Notes: generated by a model not told the origin, from the sequence alone. A stretch of DNA of 64,000 nt from Flavobacteriales bacterium (GCA_016719225.1 JADKAN010000004.1:512167-576166); one strand, 5' to 3'. Counted from the first letter of the stretch, positions 17,863-56,166 are shown. Translations and numbers: made by a program.

Positions 17863-18969
17863 TCAATTCACAGCATACACCTTTCCCGGAAGGCTACGCA
17901 CCACGCCGTTGAATTCGAGGTTGAGTAAAATGCCCGCGGCCTTATGGGGCTGCATCCGGCTGCGGAAACACAAGGTATCGATATCCATCTTTCCTTGTTC
18001 CTTGATGAGGTCGACCAAGGCTTTTTCATCGGGTAGCAGGTCGGTGAAGAGTGCCGCTTGCACGGGTGCCTTTTTAGCTGTGGGCAACCATTCCATCAGC
18101 TTGAGCACATCGGCTGAACAGGTCACTAGGTGCGCTTTGCTCTGCTGTATCAACCGGTTGCAACCGATGCTGCGACTATCCGTGGGCCTCCCGGGAAAGG
18201 CCATCACCTCGCGGTCGTAGCTATCCGCGATGTCCGCGGTGATGAGCGATCCGCCTTTTGTGCCGCTTTCCACCACGACAGTGCAGTCGCTGAGGCCGGC
18301 GATCACGCGGTTGCGCGCAGGGAAATTCCCCGGTGCGAAGGTGCTACCGCTGGTCAGTTCGCTGATCAGTGCGCCTTGCTCACACATTTCTTTTGCGGTG
18401 GAAGCATGTTCACCGGGATAGAGCCGGTCCAGCCCATGCGCGACGCAGCCAACCGTTTGCATTCCGTGCCGCAATGCCGCGCGGTGGGCCACGATGTCGA
18501 TGCCATAGGCCAAGCCGCTTATCACCAGCGCGCCGCTTTCCTTCATGCCTTCAACCAATTCTTCACATAGCTGCTTGCCCTGTGCCGTGGGCATGCGTGT
18601 GCCCACGATGGAGATGCTGCGCGGCGGATCCAGGTCGGCATTGCCTTTCACAAAGAGCAGCACTGGTGCGTCATCGCAATGACGCAGCCGTTCGGGAAAT
18701 TCCTCATCCAAGTAGAACAGCATCCGCAGCTTGTTCTTGCGCACGTATTCCAGTTCTTTTTCCGCTGCCTTGATCACGGAACTGCCCAATATGGACCCGG
18801 CCAGCACTTTGCCTATGCCCGGCACCTTTTCCAAGGAACGCCGAACGGCTTTGTCAGTGAAAAGCATGTCCACACCACCGCAATAGGCAACGAGGTTACG
18901 TGCGTTCACCGGTCCGATGCCCTTGAGCATGGAGAGCGCGATGCGGTGGATCAATTGACTGTCTTCCAT
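17863..18969 (-). CDS. dprA: DNA-processing protein DprA (Smf)
   Basis: 368 aa; N-terminal SAM-like region (LKGIGPVNARNLV), Rossmann DprA core and a C-terminal WH domain. Confidence 0.85.
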   Translation of the reverse strand: MEDSQLIHRIALSMLKGIGPVNARNLVAYCGGVDMLFTDKAVRRSLEKVPGIGKVLAGSILGSSVIKAAEKELEYVRKNKLRMLFYLDEEFPERLRHCDDAPVLLFVKGNADLDPPRSISIVGTRMPTAQGKQLCEELVEGMKESGALVISGLAYGIDIVAHRAALRHGMQTVGCVAHGLDRLYPGEHASTAKEMCEQGALISELTSGSTFAPGNFPARNRVIAGLSDCTVVVESGTKGGSLITADIADSYDREVMAFPGRPTDSRSIGCNRLIQQSKAHLVTCSADVLKLMEWLPTAKKAPVQAALFTDLLPDEKALVDLIKEQGKMDIDTLCFRSRMQPHKAAGILLNLEFNGVVRSLPGKVYAVN

Positions 18970-26627: not shown

Positions 26628-27395
26628 ATGTACATTGATACGCACGCCCACCTTTACCACAAACAGTTCGAACACGACCGCACCGAAATGGTGCAACGCG
26701 CCTTGGATGCGGGGGTCCGCAAGCTCTTCCTGCCCAACATCGACATGACCAGTGTGGAGGCCATGCACGAACTCTGTGATAAATACCCTGAGATCTGCTT
26801 TCCCATGATGGGCCTGCACCCATGCTCGGTAGGTGAGGACCCGGAACGTGATCTCGCCGAGGTGGAACGCCTGCTCGGCACGGGCCGTTATTGGGCCGTG
26901 GGCGAGATCGGCATCGATCTGCACTGGGACAGGACGTGGCTCGCTCAACAACAGGAGGTTCTCCGACAGCAGGTGCGCTGGGCCAAAGAGCTTTCGTTGC
27001 CCGTTGTGATCCACTGCCGGGAGAGCTTTGATGAAACGTTGGCCATCATCGAGGAGGAAAAGGACGAACAGCTCACGGGCGTTTTCCATTGTTTCACGGG
27101 TACGGTGGAACAAGCGCATCGCATCATCGGCCTGAGTGGCTTCATGCTGGGTGTCGGCGGTGTGATCACCTATCCCAAAAGCGGGTTGGCGGAGACCATG
27201 GCTAAGGTGGGCGCTGCCCATTGTGTACTGGAGACCGATGCGCCCTACCTCTCCCCGGTGCCGAACCGCGGAAAGCGCAACGAAAGCAGCTATATCCCCG
27301 CTATCGCGGAAACATTGGCTAATGCAGTAGGCCTTACCGTGGACGAAGTGGCACGCATCACCACAGCGAACGCCGAACTGCTTTTCGCCGAATGA
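26628..27395 (+). CDS. tatD: TatD family metal-dependent hydrolase/DNase
   Basis: MYIDTHAHL N-terminus with the conserved His/Glu/Asp ladder; start taken at the internal Met. Confidence 0.85.
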   Translation: MYIDTHAHLYHKQFEHDRTEMVQRALDAGVRKLFLPNIDMTSVEAMHELCDKYPEICFPMMGLHPCSVGEDPERDLAEVERLLGTGRYWAVGEIGIDLHWDRTWLAQQQEVLRQQVRWAKELSLPVVIHCRESFDETLAIIEEEKDEQLTGVFHCFTGTVEQAHRIIGLSGFMLGVGGVITYPKSGLAETMAKVGAAHCVLETDAPYLSPVPNRGKRNESSYIPAIAETLANAVGLTVDEVARITTANAELLFAE

Positions 27396-28420
27396 GCACG
27401 CCCAGGGTCCTGCTGATCTATACCGGTGGAACCATCGGCATGGTGGCCGATCCGCGTAGCGGTATGCTTCATTCCGTGGACCTCGACCGCTTGGAGGAGC
27501 AAGTCCCGGAGCTGGGTCGTATGGGCGTTGCGCTGGAAACGGTCTCCTTCGGCACACCGATCGACAGCAGCGATATGCATCCGGAACAATGGGTACGGAT
27601 CGCCCGGACCATAGGTCAGCGCTATGAGGATTTCGACGGATTCGTGGTGTTGCATGGCAGCGACACCATGGCCTACACGGCAAGTGCGCTCAGCTTCCTG
27701 CTGGAGAACCTGTCCAAGCCGGTTATCCTTACCGGCAGCCAGCTACCGCTCGGGACCATCCGCACGGACGGAAAGGAGAACCTGCTTACCGCTATCGAGA
27801 TCGCTGCGGCGACAGCGAACGGAAGGCCAGTGGTTGCGGAAGTGGCTGTCTATTTTGAGTACAGTCTTTATCGCGGTAACCGCACGGTGAAAGTCCATGC
27901 GGAACGGTTCGAGGCCTTCCGCTCCCCCAATTGGCCGGTGCTGGCCGAGGCGGGTGTTCATATCCGCTACGATCATTCCGCTTTGCTGCCTGAGCGCACC
28001 GGAGGGCTTCGCGTGCACACGCTCATGGACGACGGAATTGGTGTGATACGTCTGTTCCCCGGGATCCGGGCGTCTTGGGTTAAAGCGCTGTTAAGCGATC
28101 CCGGATTGAAGGCCGTGGTGCTCACCACTTTCGGCAGCGGGAACGGGCCCACCGATAAAGATTTCCTGGATGTGCTCCGCGAAGCCCGTGGAAGGGGCAT
28201 TGTGCTGCTGAACGTGACCCAATGCGTGGGCGGACGCGTAGACCAAGGCCGATATGAGACCAGCCGCGCCTTCGCCGAAATGGGCGTGATAAGCGGAATG
28301 GACATGACCACCGAGGCCGCCATAACCAAACTGATGTTCCTGATGGGGCAGGGGATGGGTCCGGAAGAGGTGATGCGGGCCATGGGGAAGGACCTCTGTG
28401 GTGAAATTGCCGTTCCGTAA
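27392..28420 (+). CDS. ansA: L-asparaginase, type I
   Basis: VLLIYTGGTIGM N-terminal catalytic motif; 342 aa; ATGA overlap with tatD. Confidence 0.85.
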   Translation: MSTPRVLLIYTGGTIGMVADPRSGMLHSVDLDRLEEQVPELGRMGVALETVSFGTPIDSSDMHPEQWVRIARTIGQRYEDFDGFVVLHGSDTMAYTASALSFLLENLSKPVILTGSQLPLGTIRTDGKENLLTAIEIAAATANGRPVVAEVAVYFEYSLYRGNRTVKVHAERFEAFRSPNWPVLAEAGVHIRYDHSALLPERTGGLRVHTLMDDGIGVIRLFPGIRASWVKALLSDPGLKAVVLTTFGSGNGPTDKDFLDVLREARGRGIVLLNVTQCVGGRVDQGRYETSRAFAEMGVISGMDMTTEAAITKLMFLMGQGMGPEEVMRAMGKDLCGEIAVP

Positions 28421-28469
28421 GGCGTAGCCTTGTTACATTCGCGGCCCGCATCCTTGGATACGGTGTATT

Positions 28470-28557
28470 GGAGAAGTGGCCGAGTGGTTTAAGGCGCACG
28501 CCTGGAAAGTGTGTTTACTGAAAGGTAACGGGGGTTCGAATCCCTCCTTCTCCGCCA
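28470..28557 (+). tRNA. tRNA-Ser(GGA): tRNA-Ser (anticodon GGA), long variable arm, CCA encoded
   Basis: GGAGAAGTGGCCGAGTGGTTTAAGGCGCACGCCTGGAAAGTGTGTTTACTGAAAGGTAACGGGGGTTCGAATCCCTCCTTCTCCGCCA. The 7-bp acceptor stem GGAGAAG/CTTCTCC, anticodon stem CACGC/GTGTG with loop CTGGAAA, and the TpsiC arm GGGGG/CCCTC were folded by hand. Confidence 0.9.
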
Positions 28558-28578
28558 ACGCTGCCCGCGCAGCGGGCG

Positions 28579-28638
28579 GTCCCAAACAAAAAAGTTGGTG
28601 CGGAGCTTGCTCCAAGCACCAACTTTTTTGTTTGGGAC
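28579..28638. repeat. Long near-perfect hairpin immediately downstream of tRNA-Ser
   Basis: GTCCCAAACAAAAAAGTTGGTGC-GGAGCTTGCTCCAA-GCACCAACTTTTTTGTTTGGGAC: 23-bp perfect arms, with an inner GGAGC/GCTCC stem. Confidence 0.85.
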
Positions 28639-28962
28639 CAAAGGCCGCGGAGCGGCCGCAGCGTTGAAGCCACCCCCTTAGGGATAGCGCGCCTCGCGCA
28701 ATCCCTTGCACAAATACTCAGCGGAGCTTGCTCCAAGCACCAACTTTTTTGTTTGGGACCAAAGGCCGCGGAGCGGCCGCAGCGTTGAAGCCACCCCCTT
28801 AGGGATAGCGCGCCTCGCGCGATCCCTTGCACAAATACTCAGCGGAGCTTGCTCCAAGCACCAACTTTTTTGTTTGGGACCAAAGGCCGCGGAGCGGCCC
28901 CAGCGTTGAAGCCATCTTTTTAGGGATAGCCCGCCTCGCGCAATCCCTCCGATCTAGATAGG
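28600..28962. repeat. Tandem direct repeat, 3 copies of a 121-bp unit
   Basis: The unit begins GCGGAGCTTGCTCCAAGCACCAACTTTTTTGTTTGGGACCAAAGGCCGCGGAGCGGCCGCAGCGTTGAAGCCACCCCCTTAGGGATAGCGCGCCTCGCGCAATCCCTTGCACAAATACTCA, at 28600, 28721 and 28842. Copies 1-2 are near identical; copy 3 degenerates at its 3' end. Each unit holds small palindromes (GGAGCttGCTCC, GGCCGCggaGCGGCC, GCGCGcctCGCGC). Confidence 0.9.
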
Positions 28963-29083
28963 TCCAACAAGGTCGATCCTCTATCCTGCGCTCCTGCCAG
29001 GTCTACTTTCCGGTCAACATGTTCAATGCAATATAATCGATAGAAGCACCTATCCTGTCCGTAAATTCGCAGCCCTTTACCCC

Positions 29084-30070
29084 ATGCCCCGCATTGGCCC
29101 TATCGAACTCGGCGATTTTCCGCTGCTCCTTGCTCCCATGGAGGATGTGAGCGATCCGCCCTTCCGCGCGCTGTGCAAAAAGCACGGCGCCGACCTGATG
29201 TACACCGAGTTCATCAGCAGTGAAGGACTGATCCGCCAAGCGGCGAAGGGCATGAAGAAGCTGGACATCTTCCCGGAGGAACGCCCTGTTGGGATCCAGC
29301 TTTTCGGGGGCAGCGAGGATGCCATGGAAGAGGCTGCCCGCATCGCTGAGCGCGCCGGGCCGGAGCTGATCGATATCAACTACGGCTGCCCGGTGAATAA
29401 GGTGGTGAACAAAGGCGCCGGAGCTTGCCTCCTGCAGGACGTGGACAAGATGGTGCGTCTTACTGATAAAGTGGTGAAGGCCGTGAAGCTGCCAGTAACC
29501 GTGAAGACGCGCTTGGGCTGGAGCGATCAGACGAAGAACATCATGGAGGTGGCCGAGCGCCTGCAGGATGTGGGTATCCAAGCGCTGAGCATCCACGGCC
29601 GCACCCGCGCCCAGCTCTACAAAGGCCCAGCGGACTGGACCTTGATCGGTGAGGTGAAGAACAATCCGCGCATCCACATCCCCATCTTCGGCAACGGCGA
29701 CATCGATTCACCGGAGAAAGCCCTAGAGTATCGCAACCGCTACGGTGTGGACGGCCTGATGATCGGCCGGGCCAGCATCGGCGCGCCCTGGATCTTCAAC
29801 CAGATCAAGCACTTTTTCGCCACCGGAGAGCACCTGCCACCACCCACGATAGACGACCGCGTGGATGCGGCCCGCGAGCACTTCGAGCGCAGTCTGCTCT
29901 GGAAAGGCGACCACGAAGGCGTGGTGGAGATGCGCCGCCACTACACCAACTACTTCAAGGGCCTCCCGAATTTCAAGGAGCACCGCATGAAGCTGGTGAC
30001 GGAGAACGACCCACGTATTGTGCTGGAATTGCTGGAGATGGTGCGTGTGCAGTTCGAACTCGCAGCCTGA
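29084..30070 (+). CDS. dusB: tRNA-dihydrouridine synthase (DusB-like)
   Basis: LAPMEDVSDPPFRALCKKHGADLMYTEFISSEG with a TIM-barrel FMN-binding core; 328 aa. Confidence 0.9.
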   Translation: MPRIGPIELGDFPLLLAPMEDVSDPPFRALCKKHGADLMYTEFISSEGLIRQAAKGMKKLDIFPEERPVGIQLFGGSEDAMEEAARIAERAGPELIDINYGCPVNKVVNKGAGACLLQDVDKMVRLTDKVVKAVKLPVTVKTRLGWSDQTKNIMEVAERLQDVGIQALSIHGRTRAQLYKGPADWTLIGEVKNNPRIHIPIFGNGDIDSPEKALEYRNRYGVDGLMIGRASIGAPWIFNQIKHFFATGEHLPPPTIDDRVDAAREHFERSLLWKGDHEGVVEMRRHYTNYFKGLPNFKEHRMKLVTENDPRIVLELLEMVRVQFELAA

Positions 30071-30078
30071 CCGCTTGT

Positions 30079-30447
30079 ATGGCCTACGATCCCCAGTTCG
30101 AGCTCCGCATCGCTGAGGTTCTCTTGGCGCAAGGCATCGAAGCGGAGACCGTGAAGATGTTCGGCGGCATCACCTTCATGGTGCGCGGCAACATGAGCGT
30201 GGGCATCACCAGCAAGGGTGACTTCCTGGTGAAGTTCGATCCCCAACGGCATGAGGAAGCGAGCGAATGGCCCGGTGCCAAACGGTTTAACATGGGCAAG
30301 GGTGAGAACAAGGGCGTCCTGCTTGTGGATGCGGACGCGGTGGAAAGCCGCAAGGCCATGGAGAAGTGGGTGAAGCTTTCCCTGGATCACGTGCTCGCGT
30401 TGCCGCTGAAGGTGAAGAAGGCGGTGAAGCGGAAACCTTCCAAGTAG
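30079..30447 (+). CDS. TfoX/Sxy N-terminal domain family protein
   Basis: 122 aa; MFGGITFMVRGNMSVGITSKGDFLVKFDP is the characteristic TfoX_N pattern. Confidence 0.55.
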   Translation: MAYDPQFELRIAEVLLAQGIEAETVKMFGGITFMVRGNMSVGITSKGDFLVKFDPQRHEEASEWPGAKRFNMGKGENKGVLLVDADAVESRKAMEKWVKLSLDHVLALPLKVKKAVKRKPSK

Positions 30448-42568: not shown

Positions 42569-43465
42569 TCACCGGCCCGTCTCATAACGCACCATTTCGA
42601 TCAAACCGGTTTCCAGGTCCCTGGTAATGACGGCTTTCAAGAACAGCGTGCCTTCAGCATACACATACTCGCTATGGCGAACGGGTGTTCCGTCCCGGAG
42701 GAAGTCGCGCGACAAGGGATTGCCCGCACGGTCATAGGTCCATCGCCAGGTTTCAGGATGGGGCGTGCCTAGGTCGCTCACGTCAACGCGTTCACCCAAT
42801 CGACCGTTTGCATCGTAGGCAAAGGTGGTGCGCCCCATGCGCTGGGTGATGAGGTTCCTGCCTTCCACCGCGCGGAGATACCCCAGCCGGTCGTACTTGT
42901 AGACCTCTTCCTGGTAAGGCCGTCCCCGGTCGTTCATGAAGGTTTTGCGCCAGGACGTGTCGTTGATGGCCGTGTATTCAAAGGTCTCGTCGCTTACTAT
43001 GGTGGTGGCGCCCGGCTCCAAGCGATAGCGGTCGCTGCTGAGGTTTTCAATGCGCACATGCGTAGCACGGACCGGCTTGCCGCCGATGTCGTATTCGCGG
43101 CGGATCGAATACCAACCGTTGGGATCGTTGTGCAGTTCTTCCAACAATCGCCCATCGCTCCCGTTGGCGTAAAGCACGCTTGCGGTGTCCACCCCCGAAC
43201 CCGGTTTGCCGAAGGAGTTGTTGGAGTAGCCCAGCAGTCCCCGATCACCGAACCGATAGAGGTAGTAGCGGTTCCGGGCCACCATGGGCCGCCCATCGCG
43301 CTTAGTCCAGTCCTGCCCCGTTACGCTCTTTACGTCGTTGCGTGCGATGAAGTCCGGGTTGAAGGTCAACGACGCAGGGCGTTCCGCAGTGGCTTCCACC
43401 AGCAGCATCTGGGCATTCAACACAGAGCAGGCCATCGAACAGGCGATAAACAAGACGGTCCTCAT
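42569..43465 (-). CDS. Small YD-repeat (RHS-repeat-like) secreted/lipoprotein, 298 aa
   Basis: Signal peptide [19 protein letters not shown]. Repeated YD motifs ([51 protein letters not shown]). Its ATG overlaps the stop of the upstream YyaL-like gene as ATGA. The track ORF extends a further 343 codons upstream in an implausible frame. Confidence 0.6.
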
Positions 43466-45570
43466 CGTAGTTGTCCCAGCGCTTCCTTCACAGTGGATAC
43501 AGGCAATTGGCACGTCTTGTTCTCGCAGACGAAAATGGTGGTGGCGTTGCCGATCAACTTGTCCTCCAATAGTGGTAACGCACTTTTTCCCGTGCTTCCA
43601 AGAAATGCGTGACCGGGAAGATAGTGCTGGAAAAACTCCGTGCGCCGCGCTAATGCATCCGGTCCGGTGATGGCGATCTCGTACCAAGGATAGACCTGGT
43701 CCATCAGCAACAAACCCCAGTTGGTATAACCACCGGGATGATCCGCCATGTTGCCCACCACGTTGTTCAATTGCTGAGCGCTGATGGCGAGCATCCGTTG
43801 ATCGTCGTATAGGTGGCCGAGTGTGAAGAGCGCTTTGGCCATGCTGGAGTTGCTTGCCGGTATCACGTTGTCGTTCACTTCCATCCTGCGCGCGATCAAG
43901 GGCGGGTCGATGTCGCTGGTGAACCAGAACATGCCACTGGCGCTGTCGTGGAAATGCGCGATGGTGTAATCCGCAAGGGCGTGCGCATCCTTCAGCCAGG
44001 CTTCGTCGAAGGTGACCTGGTACAACGCGATCAATGCTTCGCTGGTGAAACTGTAGTCTTCCAGATACCCGTTGATGGTGGCCTTGCCGTTCTTGTAGCT
44101 GTGCCATAGGCCGCCATCGTCGCGACGGCAGCGCGAAAGCAATAATTGCATGGTACGTTCCGCTTGTTGAAGATGATCCTTGTTGCTGGTGGCTTCGTAT
44201 GCATCGCAAAGCCCCTTCACCATCATCGCGTTCCAAGAGGTGAGCGATTTGTCGTCCAATCCGGGGTGTTCCCGCTTGTCCCGTGCAATTAGCAACTTGC
44301 CATCCACCCGAATGCGGGTTCTGCGCAGTTCTTCCGGTGGAATGCCCTGCTTCGCAGCGTAGGCACTGTCCCCCATGGAGCGTAGCAGGATGTTCCGGCC
44401 GTGCTCCCAAAAGCCCTCGCCACCGGCGTTGTAGTAGTCCGTGGCAAAGTCGGCATCGGTACCCAAAGCTTCCACGAGCTCTTCCTTGGTCCACACGTAA
44501 AAGCGACCTTCCTCGCCGTCGGAATCCGCATCAAGCGCGCTGTACCACGCCCCGTCCGGACTTCGCATTTCGCGCTCCGCCCAAGTGATCGTGCGCTCCA
44601 ACACATCCTTGTATGCTTCATCGCCGAATGCCCGGTAGGCATGACTGTAGAGCGAGATGAGTTGCGCATTATCGTAAAGCATCTTCTCGAAGTGTGGCAC
44701 TTTCCACTTGGCGTCGGTGCTGTAACGGGCAAACCCTCCTCCCACTTGATCAAAGATCCCGCCTTGGGCCATTTTATCCAAGGTGGTGCGCACCTGCTTG
44801 GCCACATCCTTGTCTCCGCTGGTCATGGCGTAGCGGAGCAGGAATTCATAGTTGTTGGGCAGCGGGAATTTCGGCGCCCCGTCCGGTCCTCCGAGTTCGG
44901 TATCGAAATTCCGGGCCAACCCCTCCGCCAAGCTGTCCACTTTTTTTCTTGTGAACTCCGGCGGCTTGGTGTTCAAGGCCACAAGCTCGGTCTGTTGCAC
45001 GCCCTCATGCAATTTCTGCGCATACTCTTCCACTTTTGCAGGGTCGCTCTTCCACGTGGTCTCCAGTTGTTGCAACACCTGCATCCACTGCTCTTTCGGG
45101 AAATAGGTGCCGCCATAGACGGGTCTGGCATCGGGCGTGGTGAAACAATTCAAGGGCCAGCCACCGCGGCCTGTCATCAACTGTACGGCGGCCATGTAGA
45201 CCTGGTCCACGTCCGGCCGTTCTTCGCGGTCCACTTTGATGCATACGAAATGCGCGTTCATCAGCTGGGCCACGGCGGTGTCCTCGAAGCTTTCATGCTC
45301 CATCACATGGCACCAGTGGCAACTGCTGTAGCCAATGCTTACCAGCACCAATTTGTTCTCTGCTTTTGCCTTGGCAAAGGCTTCATCGCCCCATGGATAC
45401 CAGTCCACGGGGTTGTGTGCGTGCTGCAGCAGGTAGGGGCTGCTCTGGTGGATCAAGCGGTTGGTGTAGGCGTGCATGGTATCTTTCACGGGTGTCTGGC
45501 CGGTGCCGCATCCGGGCAGCAGGAACAAAAAAAGAGGCAGGGCGAACGGCACTCTGGCGTAAATGCGCAT
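43462..45570 (-). CDS. Thioredoxin-domain protein, YyaL/DUF255 family (thioredoxin fold plus GlcNAc-2-epimerase-like alpha/alpha-toroid)
   Basis: Signal peptide with a lipobox-like LLPGC; [13 protein letters not shown]...[24 protein letters not shown], the hallmark of DUF255. Confidence 0.85.
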
Positions 45571-45572
45571 GA

Positions 45573-46169
45573 ATGGCTAAAAGTACCGCATACCGCCCGC
45601 GCCAAAGGCCGTATGCTTCAAGGGAAGATGTACATGGCGGCGAGGGCACCACGGTCGATGCAGGCTGGCCCAGTACCTTGATGGCGGTGGGCGTGCTGGG
45701 CTTCATCATTGTTTTTTGGCTCGTAGGCAGCCGCACCTTGATCTCCTTCAATGCGCTCTTCCGGTGGTTCGCATTGTTCGCCTTCGCGGGCAATCTGGTG
45801 CCGCGGAAATGGTTCATAGGGAACTTCAGGATGGATCGCTTGGAATGGCTTTGGTTCAATTTACTGGCCGTCGGGCCGATCATCTTCAACGTCTGCTTAC
45901 TACTGAATTTTCTTGTTCACGGACCTGAGCAGCATTTGCTCGTGCGTGCGGAACGCGATTTCAACCTGCATGGATACTGGATGGAACACCGGGAATTACC
46001 ACCGCATTTGCCATGGCCTGCGGACTTTGGCAATGATCCGGAAAAGGACCGCGCAGCCATGGCCACCGCTAAGTTCGACAACAAGGTCTACGGCTTGGCG
46101 CAAGGCCTGTTCGGGTACGTGGTGATCACCTCGGAAAAGCGCGTTACGCTGGCCGGTGAGCTGGAATGA
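45573..46169 (+). CDS. Hypothetical membrane protein
   Basis: Hydrophobic segments [50 protein letters not shown]; the true start may be an internal Met at 45681. Confidence 0.45.
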
Positions 46170-56086: not shown

Positions 56087-56166
56087 GTAGCTCCCATCTT
56101 TGCACCTTGGACCGCCAGCGGACCGGGTGGTGAACGGGGCGGCAAATATAGCGGGAAGCTCGATCC

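Follow-up and report, generated by a model that had tools for sequence, protein, structure and literature searches.

Why does a serine tRNA gene in a flavobacterial genome carry on its 3' side a tandem array of hairpin-rich, gene-less DNA, and how could such an array have arisen? The question is raised by a stretch of 64,000 nucleotides from a Flavobacteriales bacterium (GCA_016719225.1, JADKAN010000004.1:512167-576166), called the window here and numbered from its first letter, in which an intact tRNA-Ser(GGA) gene with an encoded CCA end (28470..28557, + strand; ARAGORN; Rfam tRNA model, 58.9 bits) anchors three tandem units of 121 bp. The best explanation of what this array is would be a lineage-specific, gene-less module attached 3' of tRNA-Ser in a clade of uncultured Flavobacteriales. 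For its origin we tentatively favor, with a probability of about 0.4, a gene-less integration scar at tRNA-Ser that resembles a cis-mobilizable element (CIME) and that would have been amplified by unequal recombination and palindrome-driven template switching.

Distribution and copy number of the array

An earlier note on this DNA described three tandem 121-bp units that begin at 28600, 28721 and 28842, the last copy decaying. The description holds: identities to the first unit are 100, 99 and 86% (Tandem Repeats Finder [TRF] and a repeat search), and TRF reports a period of 121, 2.9 copies, 96% matches and a score of 649 over 28600-28948. Unit 1 (28600..28720, + strand) is composed of an apex hairpin, a right arm (b), a c hairpin, a box, a C-run, a d hairpin and a tail/linker. 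Unit 2 (28721..28841, + strand) is 99% identical to it, with an A-to-G change in the d hairpin at 28821. In unit 3 (28842..28962, + strand; 86% identical), the C-run has decayed to TCTTTT, the d stem has one mismatch and the tail is different.

A covariance model (R1) that extends from the c hairpin to the d hairpin was built from 25 units of 12 loci. It matches the three units at 28637-28712 (94.9 bits), 28758-28833 (93.3 bits) and 28879-28954 (80.7 bits) and, with filters off, finds nothing more in the window, the next best E-value being ~0.04-0.1. In ~130 kb of related loci, among which the GGA loci were located using asparaginase homologues as anchors, only arrays behind tRNA-Ser match. 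A scan of genome contigs for the arm pattern returned a single orthologous locus (L010), and eight loci, all at tRNA-Ser, came up when metagenomes were scanned for the d core, AGGGATAGCGCGCNTCGCGCNATCC; both were single exact-pattern scans, which diverged copies elsewhere could escape. Two of the eight are orthologous GGA loci (L011 and L014), one lies behind tRNA-Ser(CGA) with its own 123-bp × 2.6 tandem array (L012), and four, with one to at least three units, follow tRNA-Ser(GCT), which closes a Pro-Arg-Ser tRNA cluster (L013, L016, L017 and L018). The last, L015, is the right junction (attR, att denoting attachment site) of an element integrated into tRNA-Ser(GCT); the other seven are located 3' of tRNA-Ser or are contig pieces of those loci. 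Each matching metagenome contig (24-92 kb) gave one matching stretch only, at its tRNA-Ser. The CGA and GCT loci are metagenome contigs, which may or may not belong to the species of the window.

Wherever the tRNA gene is in view, the module has its orientation and is 3' of it, in 1-4 tandem copies. The bodies of the GGA, CGA and GCT tRNA genes are strongly different, so the flank was not spread by duplication of the tRNA gene. At the GGA locus the array is present in species down to 74% asparaginase protein identity (L042, L027, L029, L039/L043, L045 and L048); in another relative, L041, tRNA-Ser is followed by dus at a distance of ~110 nt with no module, which is taken to give the polarity of insertion. 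The genes that adjoin the arrays differ by locus (dus, CHAT, thiolase or a convergent open reading frame [ORF]). The suggestion of a structured intergenic repeat family nucleated at a tRNA is borne out, the module being found behind tRNA-Ser in related loci too, but the dispersal that was expected of it, like that of repetitive extragenic palindromes (REPs) or miniature inverted-repeat transposable elements (MITEs), is not. Neither the remainder of the window nor the other related DNA searched contains the module, which occurs only directly 3' of tRNA-Ser. Nor is the unit peculiar to this one locus, since related GGA, CGA and GCT tRNA-Ser loci have it; a search for it elsewhere, of the kind that had been proposed, reveals a family, but one that in the DNA searched is restricted to tRNA-Ser and is not dispersed.

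The array is confirmed as genuine and variable in copy number and is not an assembly artefact. The three units recur in an independent assembly from ENA (L004), which is 99.985% identical across 6.8 kb, and two are present in GCA_049290555.1 (L001/L019), the first combining units 1 and 2 as a hybrid and the second being unit 3. Comparison of the same tRNA-Ser locus in relatives, also proposed earlier, reveals variation (2, 3 and 4 units). There are four units on contig L029 and three on L030, both from one related species, and in relatives overall the arrays comprise 2-4 units, the period ranging from 99 to 177 bp. Arrays are also found on contigs of ~0.9-1.2 Mb (two units in L010, four in L042 and two in L039). 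Many short-read contigs end inside the array, which makes copy numbers from single metagenome-assembled genomes (MAGs) uncertain while the array itself is no artefact; in practice, short-read assemblies break here and a copy number from a MAG is not trustworthy without long reads. Units have been shown to be gained, lost and homogenized within species. Those within a genome are more alike than orthologous units of different species, which indicates concerted evolution. Species whose asparaginases are 83-86% identical have two ancient unit types in common, and the type that was amplified varies with the lineage.

Anatomy of the module

Twenty nucleotides past the tRNA begins a long hairpin, P1 (28578..28639, + strand), with perfect 24-nt arms (28578-28601 and 28616-28639) around a conserved apex, GGAGCTTGCTCC-AA (28602-28615). 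The hairpin had been noticed before and is indeed perfect, but its arms had been given as 23 nt and its start as 21 nt past the tRNA. P1 has A6 in its 5' arm and T6 in its 3' arm and encloses the small hairpin GGAGCttGCTCC at 28602-28613; the apex hairpin is conserved among units as GAGCTYGCTC, then AAGC. Its left arm is a single-copy sequence at the tRNA-proximal edge, which forms the long hairpin by pairing with arm b of unit 1, and only this first unit has a left arm complementary to arm b. Arm b is variable in sequence. When the long hairpins of eight loci are compared, arm identity between loci is only 20-78%, yet Watson-Crick pairs account for 173 of 175 positions and G·T for one. The second unit begins 2-6 nt from the hairpin apex in all three locus types.

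Between the tRNA and P1 is a trailer hairpin, hairpin 0 (28559..28577, + strand), in which GCCCGC-gca-GCGGGC (28563-28577) overlaps an alternative CGCTGC-ccgc-GCAGCG (28559-28574). At the GGA locus it has a GNA-type loop and no T-run and is similar to the c hairpin of the units; at the GCT loci, the box and d hairpin are preceded by a canonical terminator, hairpin 0 with a T-run. DNA that directly follows the tRNA can also pair with DNA that directly precedes the box, in letters that differ by locus (CGCTGC/GCAGCG, GTGCAAA/TTTGCAC, GCGAACG/CGTTCGC and GATCGGCC/GGCCGATC). As the trailer hairpin of the tRNA seems to have been copied in the c hairpin, this closing pairing may be partly inherited.

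All units have the same order of parts: apex hairpin, arm, c hairpin, box with C-run, d hairpin and a variable tail/linker. The c hairpin, GGCCGC-gga-GCGGCC in the window (28643..28657, 28764-28778 and 28885-28899, + strand), is GC rich with a GNA loop; its apex, CGCG-N-AGCG, is nearly invariant across loci, and its outer stem covaries, with three pairs changed on both sides and a covariation score exceeded by 0 of 500 shuffles. Next comes the box, TTGAAGCC with ACCCCC (28664..28677, 28785-28798 and 28906-28919, + strand), with the consensus (T)TGAAGCC and then a C-run, of which GAAGCC is invariant in 25 of 25 aligned units from 12 loci. The 27-nt d hairpin, AGGGAT-A-GCGCG-cct-CGCGC-A-ATCCCT (28680..28706, 28801-28827 and 28922-28948, + strand), is the most conserved part of the module. 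Its consensus of 25-27 nt is GGGA(T/A)-N-GCGCGC(C/T)TCGCGC-R-ATCCC, i.e., GGGAN-N-GCGCGCYTCGCGC-R-ATCCC, and its sequence is nearly invariant with almost no covariation, so covariation says little there. Of the motifs named earlier, GGCCGCggaGCGGCC and GCGCGcctCGCGC are present in all three units, with one mismatch in GCGCGcctCGCGC in unit 3. In two species, a conserved hairpin-rich insert of ~57 nt replaces the CCT loop of one d hairpin (L043 2925-2985; L045 3047-3107). The insert reads ATGCTGAGCAT...GAAGTGGC.CTCCGCA.GCCGGTACGGCTGAGGAGCC.AAGCA, and the 8-mer GAAGTGGC also occurs at the 5' end of tRNA-Ser.

None of 100 shuffles contained the 24-nt arm or the 27-nt hairpin (0/100), and pattern searches found neither elsewhere in the window. 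Folding was exceptional in the tRNA-proximal part (z = −7.7) but not in internal units alone (z = −0.8 and −0.07). The units had been called full of nested palindromes; as the internal ones fold like shuffled sequence, this applies to two short hairpins per unit and not to the global fold. A census of stem mismatches (~6 G·T versus 5 A·C events, no strand bias) is uninformative with respect to RNA or DNA. ORFs that span the repeats have no Pfam match and the period of 121 is not a multiple of 3, in agreement with their earlier dismissal as artefacts; on the same grounds, together with an indel in the C-run, a coding unit was rejected.

A proposed integration scar and its rivals

The argument for integration begins with the tails. 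The 3' arm of the d hairpin and the tail that follows match the tRNA's 3' end from the T-loop AAT onward. In the window the tail is AATCCCT in units 1 and 2 (28700..28708, + strand, with the second copy at 28821) and AATCCCTCC in unit 3 (28942-28950), matching tRNA positions 28536-28544 (the T-loop AAT and the 3' strand of the T-stem). Both unit types of L029 end in AATCCCTCCTTCTCC, identical to the tRNA-Ser(GGA) 3' end at 15 of 15 positions, and exact matches are 12 nt long in L027, 10 nt in L045, 9 nt in unit 3 of the window, 7 nt in its units 1 and 2 and 5 nt at the CGA locus. In a composition-preserving permutation of 23 distinct GGA-locus tails, which left out two L048 tails as the tRNA 3' end differs there, a run of ≥15 had a P value of 0.0055. 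AATCCC is followed by T in 24 of 25 GGA-locus tails, those of L048 among them, and by C in four of six GCT-locus tails, in each case the base of the cognate tRNA.

Integration at this spot of tRNA-Ser is real. In L015, an element with a phage-type primase (phrog_1139) and helix-turn-helix (HTH) proteins adjoins AATCCCCCCCTCTCCGCCA, and the same AAT marks where identity to the tRNA sets in. The module is downstream of the junction and hence on the chromosome side, and the arm sequence of the element differs from that of the module. The earlier note had considered an att-site connection unlikely because the repeats did not resemble the tRNA 3' end, and it had itself set an integrated element with a matching att site at a homologous locus against its reading. 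The exact 15-nt copies in L029 units and the att core in L015, which starts at the same T-loop position, are such a likeness and such an element; judged on these matches, the rejection was premature, and the statement of no likeness is true only superficially and only for the window. At L015 7480-7540, the DNA of the element and the displaced 3' end of tRNA(GCT) form a self-complementary acceptor and T-arm "minihelix," GGCGGAGAG-ACGTGAAGA-GGGGTGGTTAATCCCC-CCCTCTCCGCCA.

We propose the following sequence of events for a CIME-like scar. (i) Site-specific recombination of the integrase type at the shared T-arm/acceptor end of tRNA-Ser would have put the module behind three isoacceptor genes and would have moved the previous tRNA 3' end beyond the inserted DNA. 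(ii) A gene-less, CIME-like residue would have been left, in which the box and hairpins may be former recombination arms. (iii) Copy number would then have changed by unequal homologous recombination or slippage between units. (iv) Template switching at the long palindrome may keep the arms complementary and set the duplication boundary at the apex. As a by-product, the hairpins probably stop or insulate transcription of the tRNA. Steps iii and iv rest on established general mutational mechanisms. The first step is proposed because of where the module lies, how it is oriented, its tail and the fact that elements of Bacteroidota are known to use tRNA-Ser 3' ends (PMC6692515; bioRxiv 10.1101/402107). 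Tandem accretion and decay to CIMEs, and CIMEs themselves, are documented (PMC5704250), as are partial-tRNA scars from serial integration (bioRxiv 10.1101/2020.12.28.424599).

Among known systems, the array works most like the CIME and att scars found at tRNA genes (ICESt1/CIME of Streptococcus, the partial-tRNA repeats of tycheposons in Prochlorococcus and NBU2 at tRNA-Ser in Bacteroides). Like these, it lies directly 3' of the tRNA in a fixed orientation, as found at every locus with the tRNA in view; what seems to be a partial tRNA 3' end, starting from the T-loop, is at the distal side of its units; it is tandem and gene-less; and tRNA-Ser is a documented target in Bacteroidota, with an integrated element at the homologous locus L015. 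Unlike CIMEs, which measure kilobases, its units are 99-177 bp and built of hairpins, no related autonomous element or integrase was found, its internal junctions are not those expected from serial integration, and its putative arms are more conserved than its att core. Quasipalindrome template switching and slipped-strand tandem duplication, reportedly described by Ripley in 1982 and by the Lovett laboratory, share with the array a palindrome that stays perfect during turnover, a duplication boundary at the apex in several lineages and a varying copy number; being general mutational mechanisms, they account for maintenance of the array but not for its origin or its specificity for tRNA-Ser. 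The pairing of the long arms with one G·T in 175 positions, the absence of a strand bias in mismatches and the GCT terminator upstream of the box were counted as a signature at the level of DNA.

Several observations weigh against a scar. First, no genes lie between the tRNA and the tails, all metagenome matches being gene-less, and no integrase or active element carrying the box or the d hairpin was found in viral contigs, phages or plasmids: the arm and d-core patterns have no match in viral contigs, and blastn of the trailer against phages and plasmids gave nothing relevant. (A looser box pattern had 27 matches in viral contigs, which were rejected as chance, R1 giving ≤15.7 bits.) Second, no known integrative element is nearly as small as a unit of 121-177 bp. 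Third, the tail evidence is weak in the window (7-9 nt) and at the CGA locus (5 nt), and the sequence after internal tails differs from that after the tRNA, from which it follows that the array is not a simple series of site-specific insertions. Fourth, conservation is higher in the putative arms than in the att core. Across species with unalignable linkers, hardly any variation is seen in the box, c apex and d hairpin, while the supposed att core decays, and this looks like purifying selection for function, unlike a dead scar. Finally, the d stem has a compensatory change (GCGCG/CGCGC to GCCCG/CGGGC) in L039 and L045. If the integration scar is nevertheless the correct reading, the array would condense a history of repeated recombination at tRNA-Ser in a wastewater-associated lineage of uncultured Flavobacteriales, and gene-less att residues of ~120 bp, far smaller than described CIMEs, would persist, homogenize and spread between isoacceptor genes.

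The array could instead be a cotranscribed structured RNA, read through from the tRNA-Ser promoter, with the units as elements for processing, stability, termination or insulation or as a trailer-derived small RNA; the d hairpin and tail (~11 bp and a 3' tail) would then mimic a tRNA acceptor/T-arm minihelix. This is the main rival of the scar, and we regard it as possible though doubtful. It agrees with the same-strand, fixed orientation behind the tRNA at all loci, with the missing T-run of hairpin 0 at the GGA locus, with a closing helix formed by different sequences at different loci and with the covariation of the c outer stem, the compensatory change in the d stem and the strong conservation of loops and box. 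The −7 promoter consensus of Bacteroidetes is TAnnTTTG, and a promoter scan found neither a box of this type nor a sigma-70-like site inside the units, so that any transcript would be tRNA read-through. Set against this, there is no Rfam family match even at E ≤ 10, the folding of internal units does not surpass that of shuffles, the d hairpin keeps its sequence and barely covaries, the long arms are essentially free of G·U despite full sequence turnover and stems have no excess of G·U over A·C. Moreover, a canonical terminator precedes the box and d hairpin at GCT loci, and the arrival of the module at three unrelated tRNA-Ser genes is left unexplained. As to termination itself, P1 resembles intrinsic (bidirectional) terminators in having A6 upstream and T6 downstream of a GC-rich inner stem directly after the tRNA, but its T-run is inside the stem, the equivalent hairpins of L027 and L039 have no T-run, and the repeated units lack the left arm. 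A simple terminator scan of 28300-29200 found no canonical terminator, which does not decide for or against the earlier idea of stacked terminators; the tRNA-Phe gene in the window has a plain hairpin and T5 terminator only.

There is also a realistic, if lesser, chance that the module is a new element specific to tRNA-Ser, being either non-autonomous DNA copied behind any tRNA-Ser gene by a recombinase that recognizes T-arm-like sequence or a family of tRNA-trailer RNAs that mimic the acceptor/T-arm minihelix. In the DNA version the box, TTGAAGCC-CCCCC, and the GGGAT...ATCCC hairpin would be the recognition sites. Either version would explain why the box and hairpins are invariant while their surroundings, the tRNA-derived tail included, decay. 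Should the box and hairpins have a function, be it in RNA or as DNA bound by a protein, they would define an undescribed class of element tied to a single tRNA identity, and the motifs would be a handle for finding a partner protein. We found no description of such a module in Rfam, in phage, plasmid and viral collections or in full-text literature searches.

A host array acting at the level of DNA, in which a regulator or a nucleoid, recombination or replication factor of the host would bind the box and palindromes as sites multiplied in tandem at tRNA-Ser, seems improbable. The elements are indeed palindromic, GAAGCC, GCGCGCYTCGCGC and CGCG-N-AGCG are conserved in sequence rather than in structure, and mismatches have no strand bias; however, no candidate protein is linked, the neighboring genes vary from locus to locus, and the tRNA-like tail and the restriction to tRNA-Ser would not be explained.

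In appearance, the array comes closest to a bacterial interspersed mosaic element (BIME). The BIMEs/REPs of enterobacteria and BOX of Streptococcus pneumoniae are extragenic mosaics of imperfect palindromes with tens to hundreds of dispersed copies per genome, and the orientation of BIME units alternates. The array likewise is extragenic and modular, a mosaic that joins imperfect palindromes with conserved linkers where a transcription unit has its 3' end, with stable hairpins and a variable tandem number, and the ~57-nt insert in a d-hairpin loop of two species recalls insertions into palindromic units. Yet a dispersed repeat of the REP/BIME or MITE type, mobilized by a transposase and near a tRNA by chance, which had been the leading idea of the earlier note, is very improbable and, for the sequence searched here, largely refuted. 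No further match was found in the 64-kb window or in other locus DNA, each metagenome contig has one stretch only, all hairpins are direct copies behind tRNA-Ser with a tRNA-derived tail, terminal inverted repeats and target site duplications are lacking, and Pfam searches found no integrase, transposase or REP-associated tyrosine transposase (RAYT) within ~15 kb on either side, as had been said before of mobile-element genes. The array thus fails the defining tests of both systems it most resembles: no autonomous relative and no clean att repeats for a CIME, and no dispersal and no alternating orientation for a BIME.

Least probable of all is plain local tandem duplication of an intergenic terminator region as a variable-number tandem repeat, or an assembly artefact: units 1 and 2 are 99% identical, copy number varies by assembly and short-read contigs break in the array, but the recurrence of the three units in an independent assembly, arrays on contigs of 0.9-1.2 Mb, ancient unit types shared across species and the module at CGA and GCT loci refute this as a full explanation, unequal recombination being probably the cause of copy number change.

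Other identities were set aside. Only the tRNA reaches threshold among known Rfam RNAs, the remaining matches being generic hairpin matches to miRNA models far below gathering scores. A degenerate tRNA pseudogene was rejected, as ARAGORN and the Rfam tRNA model see nothing in the units and similarity is limited to the tail. Clustered regularly interspaced short palindromic repeats (CRISPR) and type III toxin-antitoxin repeats do not fit contiguous 121-bp units without spacers between asparaginase and dus. Integron attC sites, retrons, ToxI-like repeats and the ends of IS200/IS605 and Tn7 were dismissed on anatomy as well (no R'/R'' boxes, reverse transcriptase, spacers, toxin or transposase). 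A possible resemblance of TTGAAGCC-CCCCC to TTCGAATCCC-CC is not specific to the locus and was not used.

Flanking genes and minor observations

The genes on either side of the array are housekeeping genes, for a type I asparaginase (27392-28420) and a dihydrouridine synthase (dus, 29084-30070). The distal boundary is a promoter-like box, TAAATTCGCAGCCC (29062..29075, + strand), found by the repeat search just before dus (ATG at 29084), and its motif also precedes other genes; its twin, TACATTCGCGGCCC, is at 28434-28447, upstream of the tRNA. Boxes of the form TAnnTT(T/C)GC-GCCC are thus seen upstream of tRNA-Ser (28434-28447), dus (29062-29075) and tRNA-Phe (~56140-56150, − strand), and the same promoter-like boxes precede thiolase and tRNA genes in related loci, fitting the −7 consensus with a conserved GC-rich extension.

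In some species, a block of ~4.7 kb is placed exactly at the array's distal edge, before dus; it encodes a 76-amino-acid (aa) ORF, a CHAT-domain protein, a 244-aa putative anti-sigma factor, an extracytoplasmic function (ECF) sigma factor and a 154-aa ORF. The block is present in L010 (3995-7600), L027, which is the same as L003 (L027 7802-12444), L002 and L005 and absent from the window (28963-29061), L042, L029, L039, L043 and L011. Its presence in some species and absence from others indicates an indel hotspot at the array's distal edge. Clear direct repeats were not seen at the flanks of the block, and an att-like reading of them was dropped. Between the array and the dus promoter are short (A/G)ATCCTG-like motifs 8-9 nt apart (window 28984-29010; L042 4268-4300; L003 2866-2895); the L042 example is GATCCTGACAATCCTGAAATCCTGTC, and these could be decayed unit tails or a regulator site.

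Two members of competence-associated families, DprA (17863-18969, − strand) and a TfoX_N-domain protein (30079-30447, + strand), lie ≤11 kb apart around the locus, which is probably a coincidence. Farther along the window, at 42569-45681, long ORFs overlap on both strands (641 aa with a weak RHS-repeat match, 702 aa with DUF255/thioredoxin and 426 aa with no match); only one of these can be real, and gene calls there need care. The DusB protein of the window (29084-30070) is 100% identical to that of L002, L003 and L005 (3001-3987), although the dus DNA is only 92% identical and the upstream synteny is different. The differences are therefore all synonymous, an unusually strong constraint for an enzyme of 328 aa.

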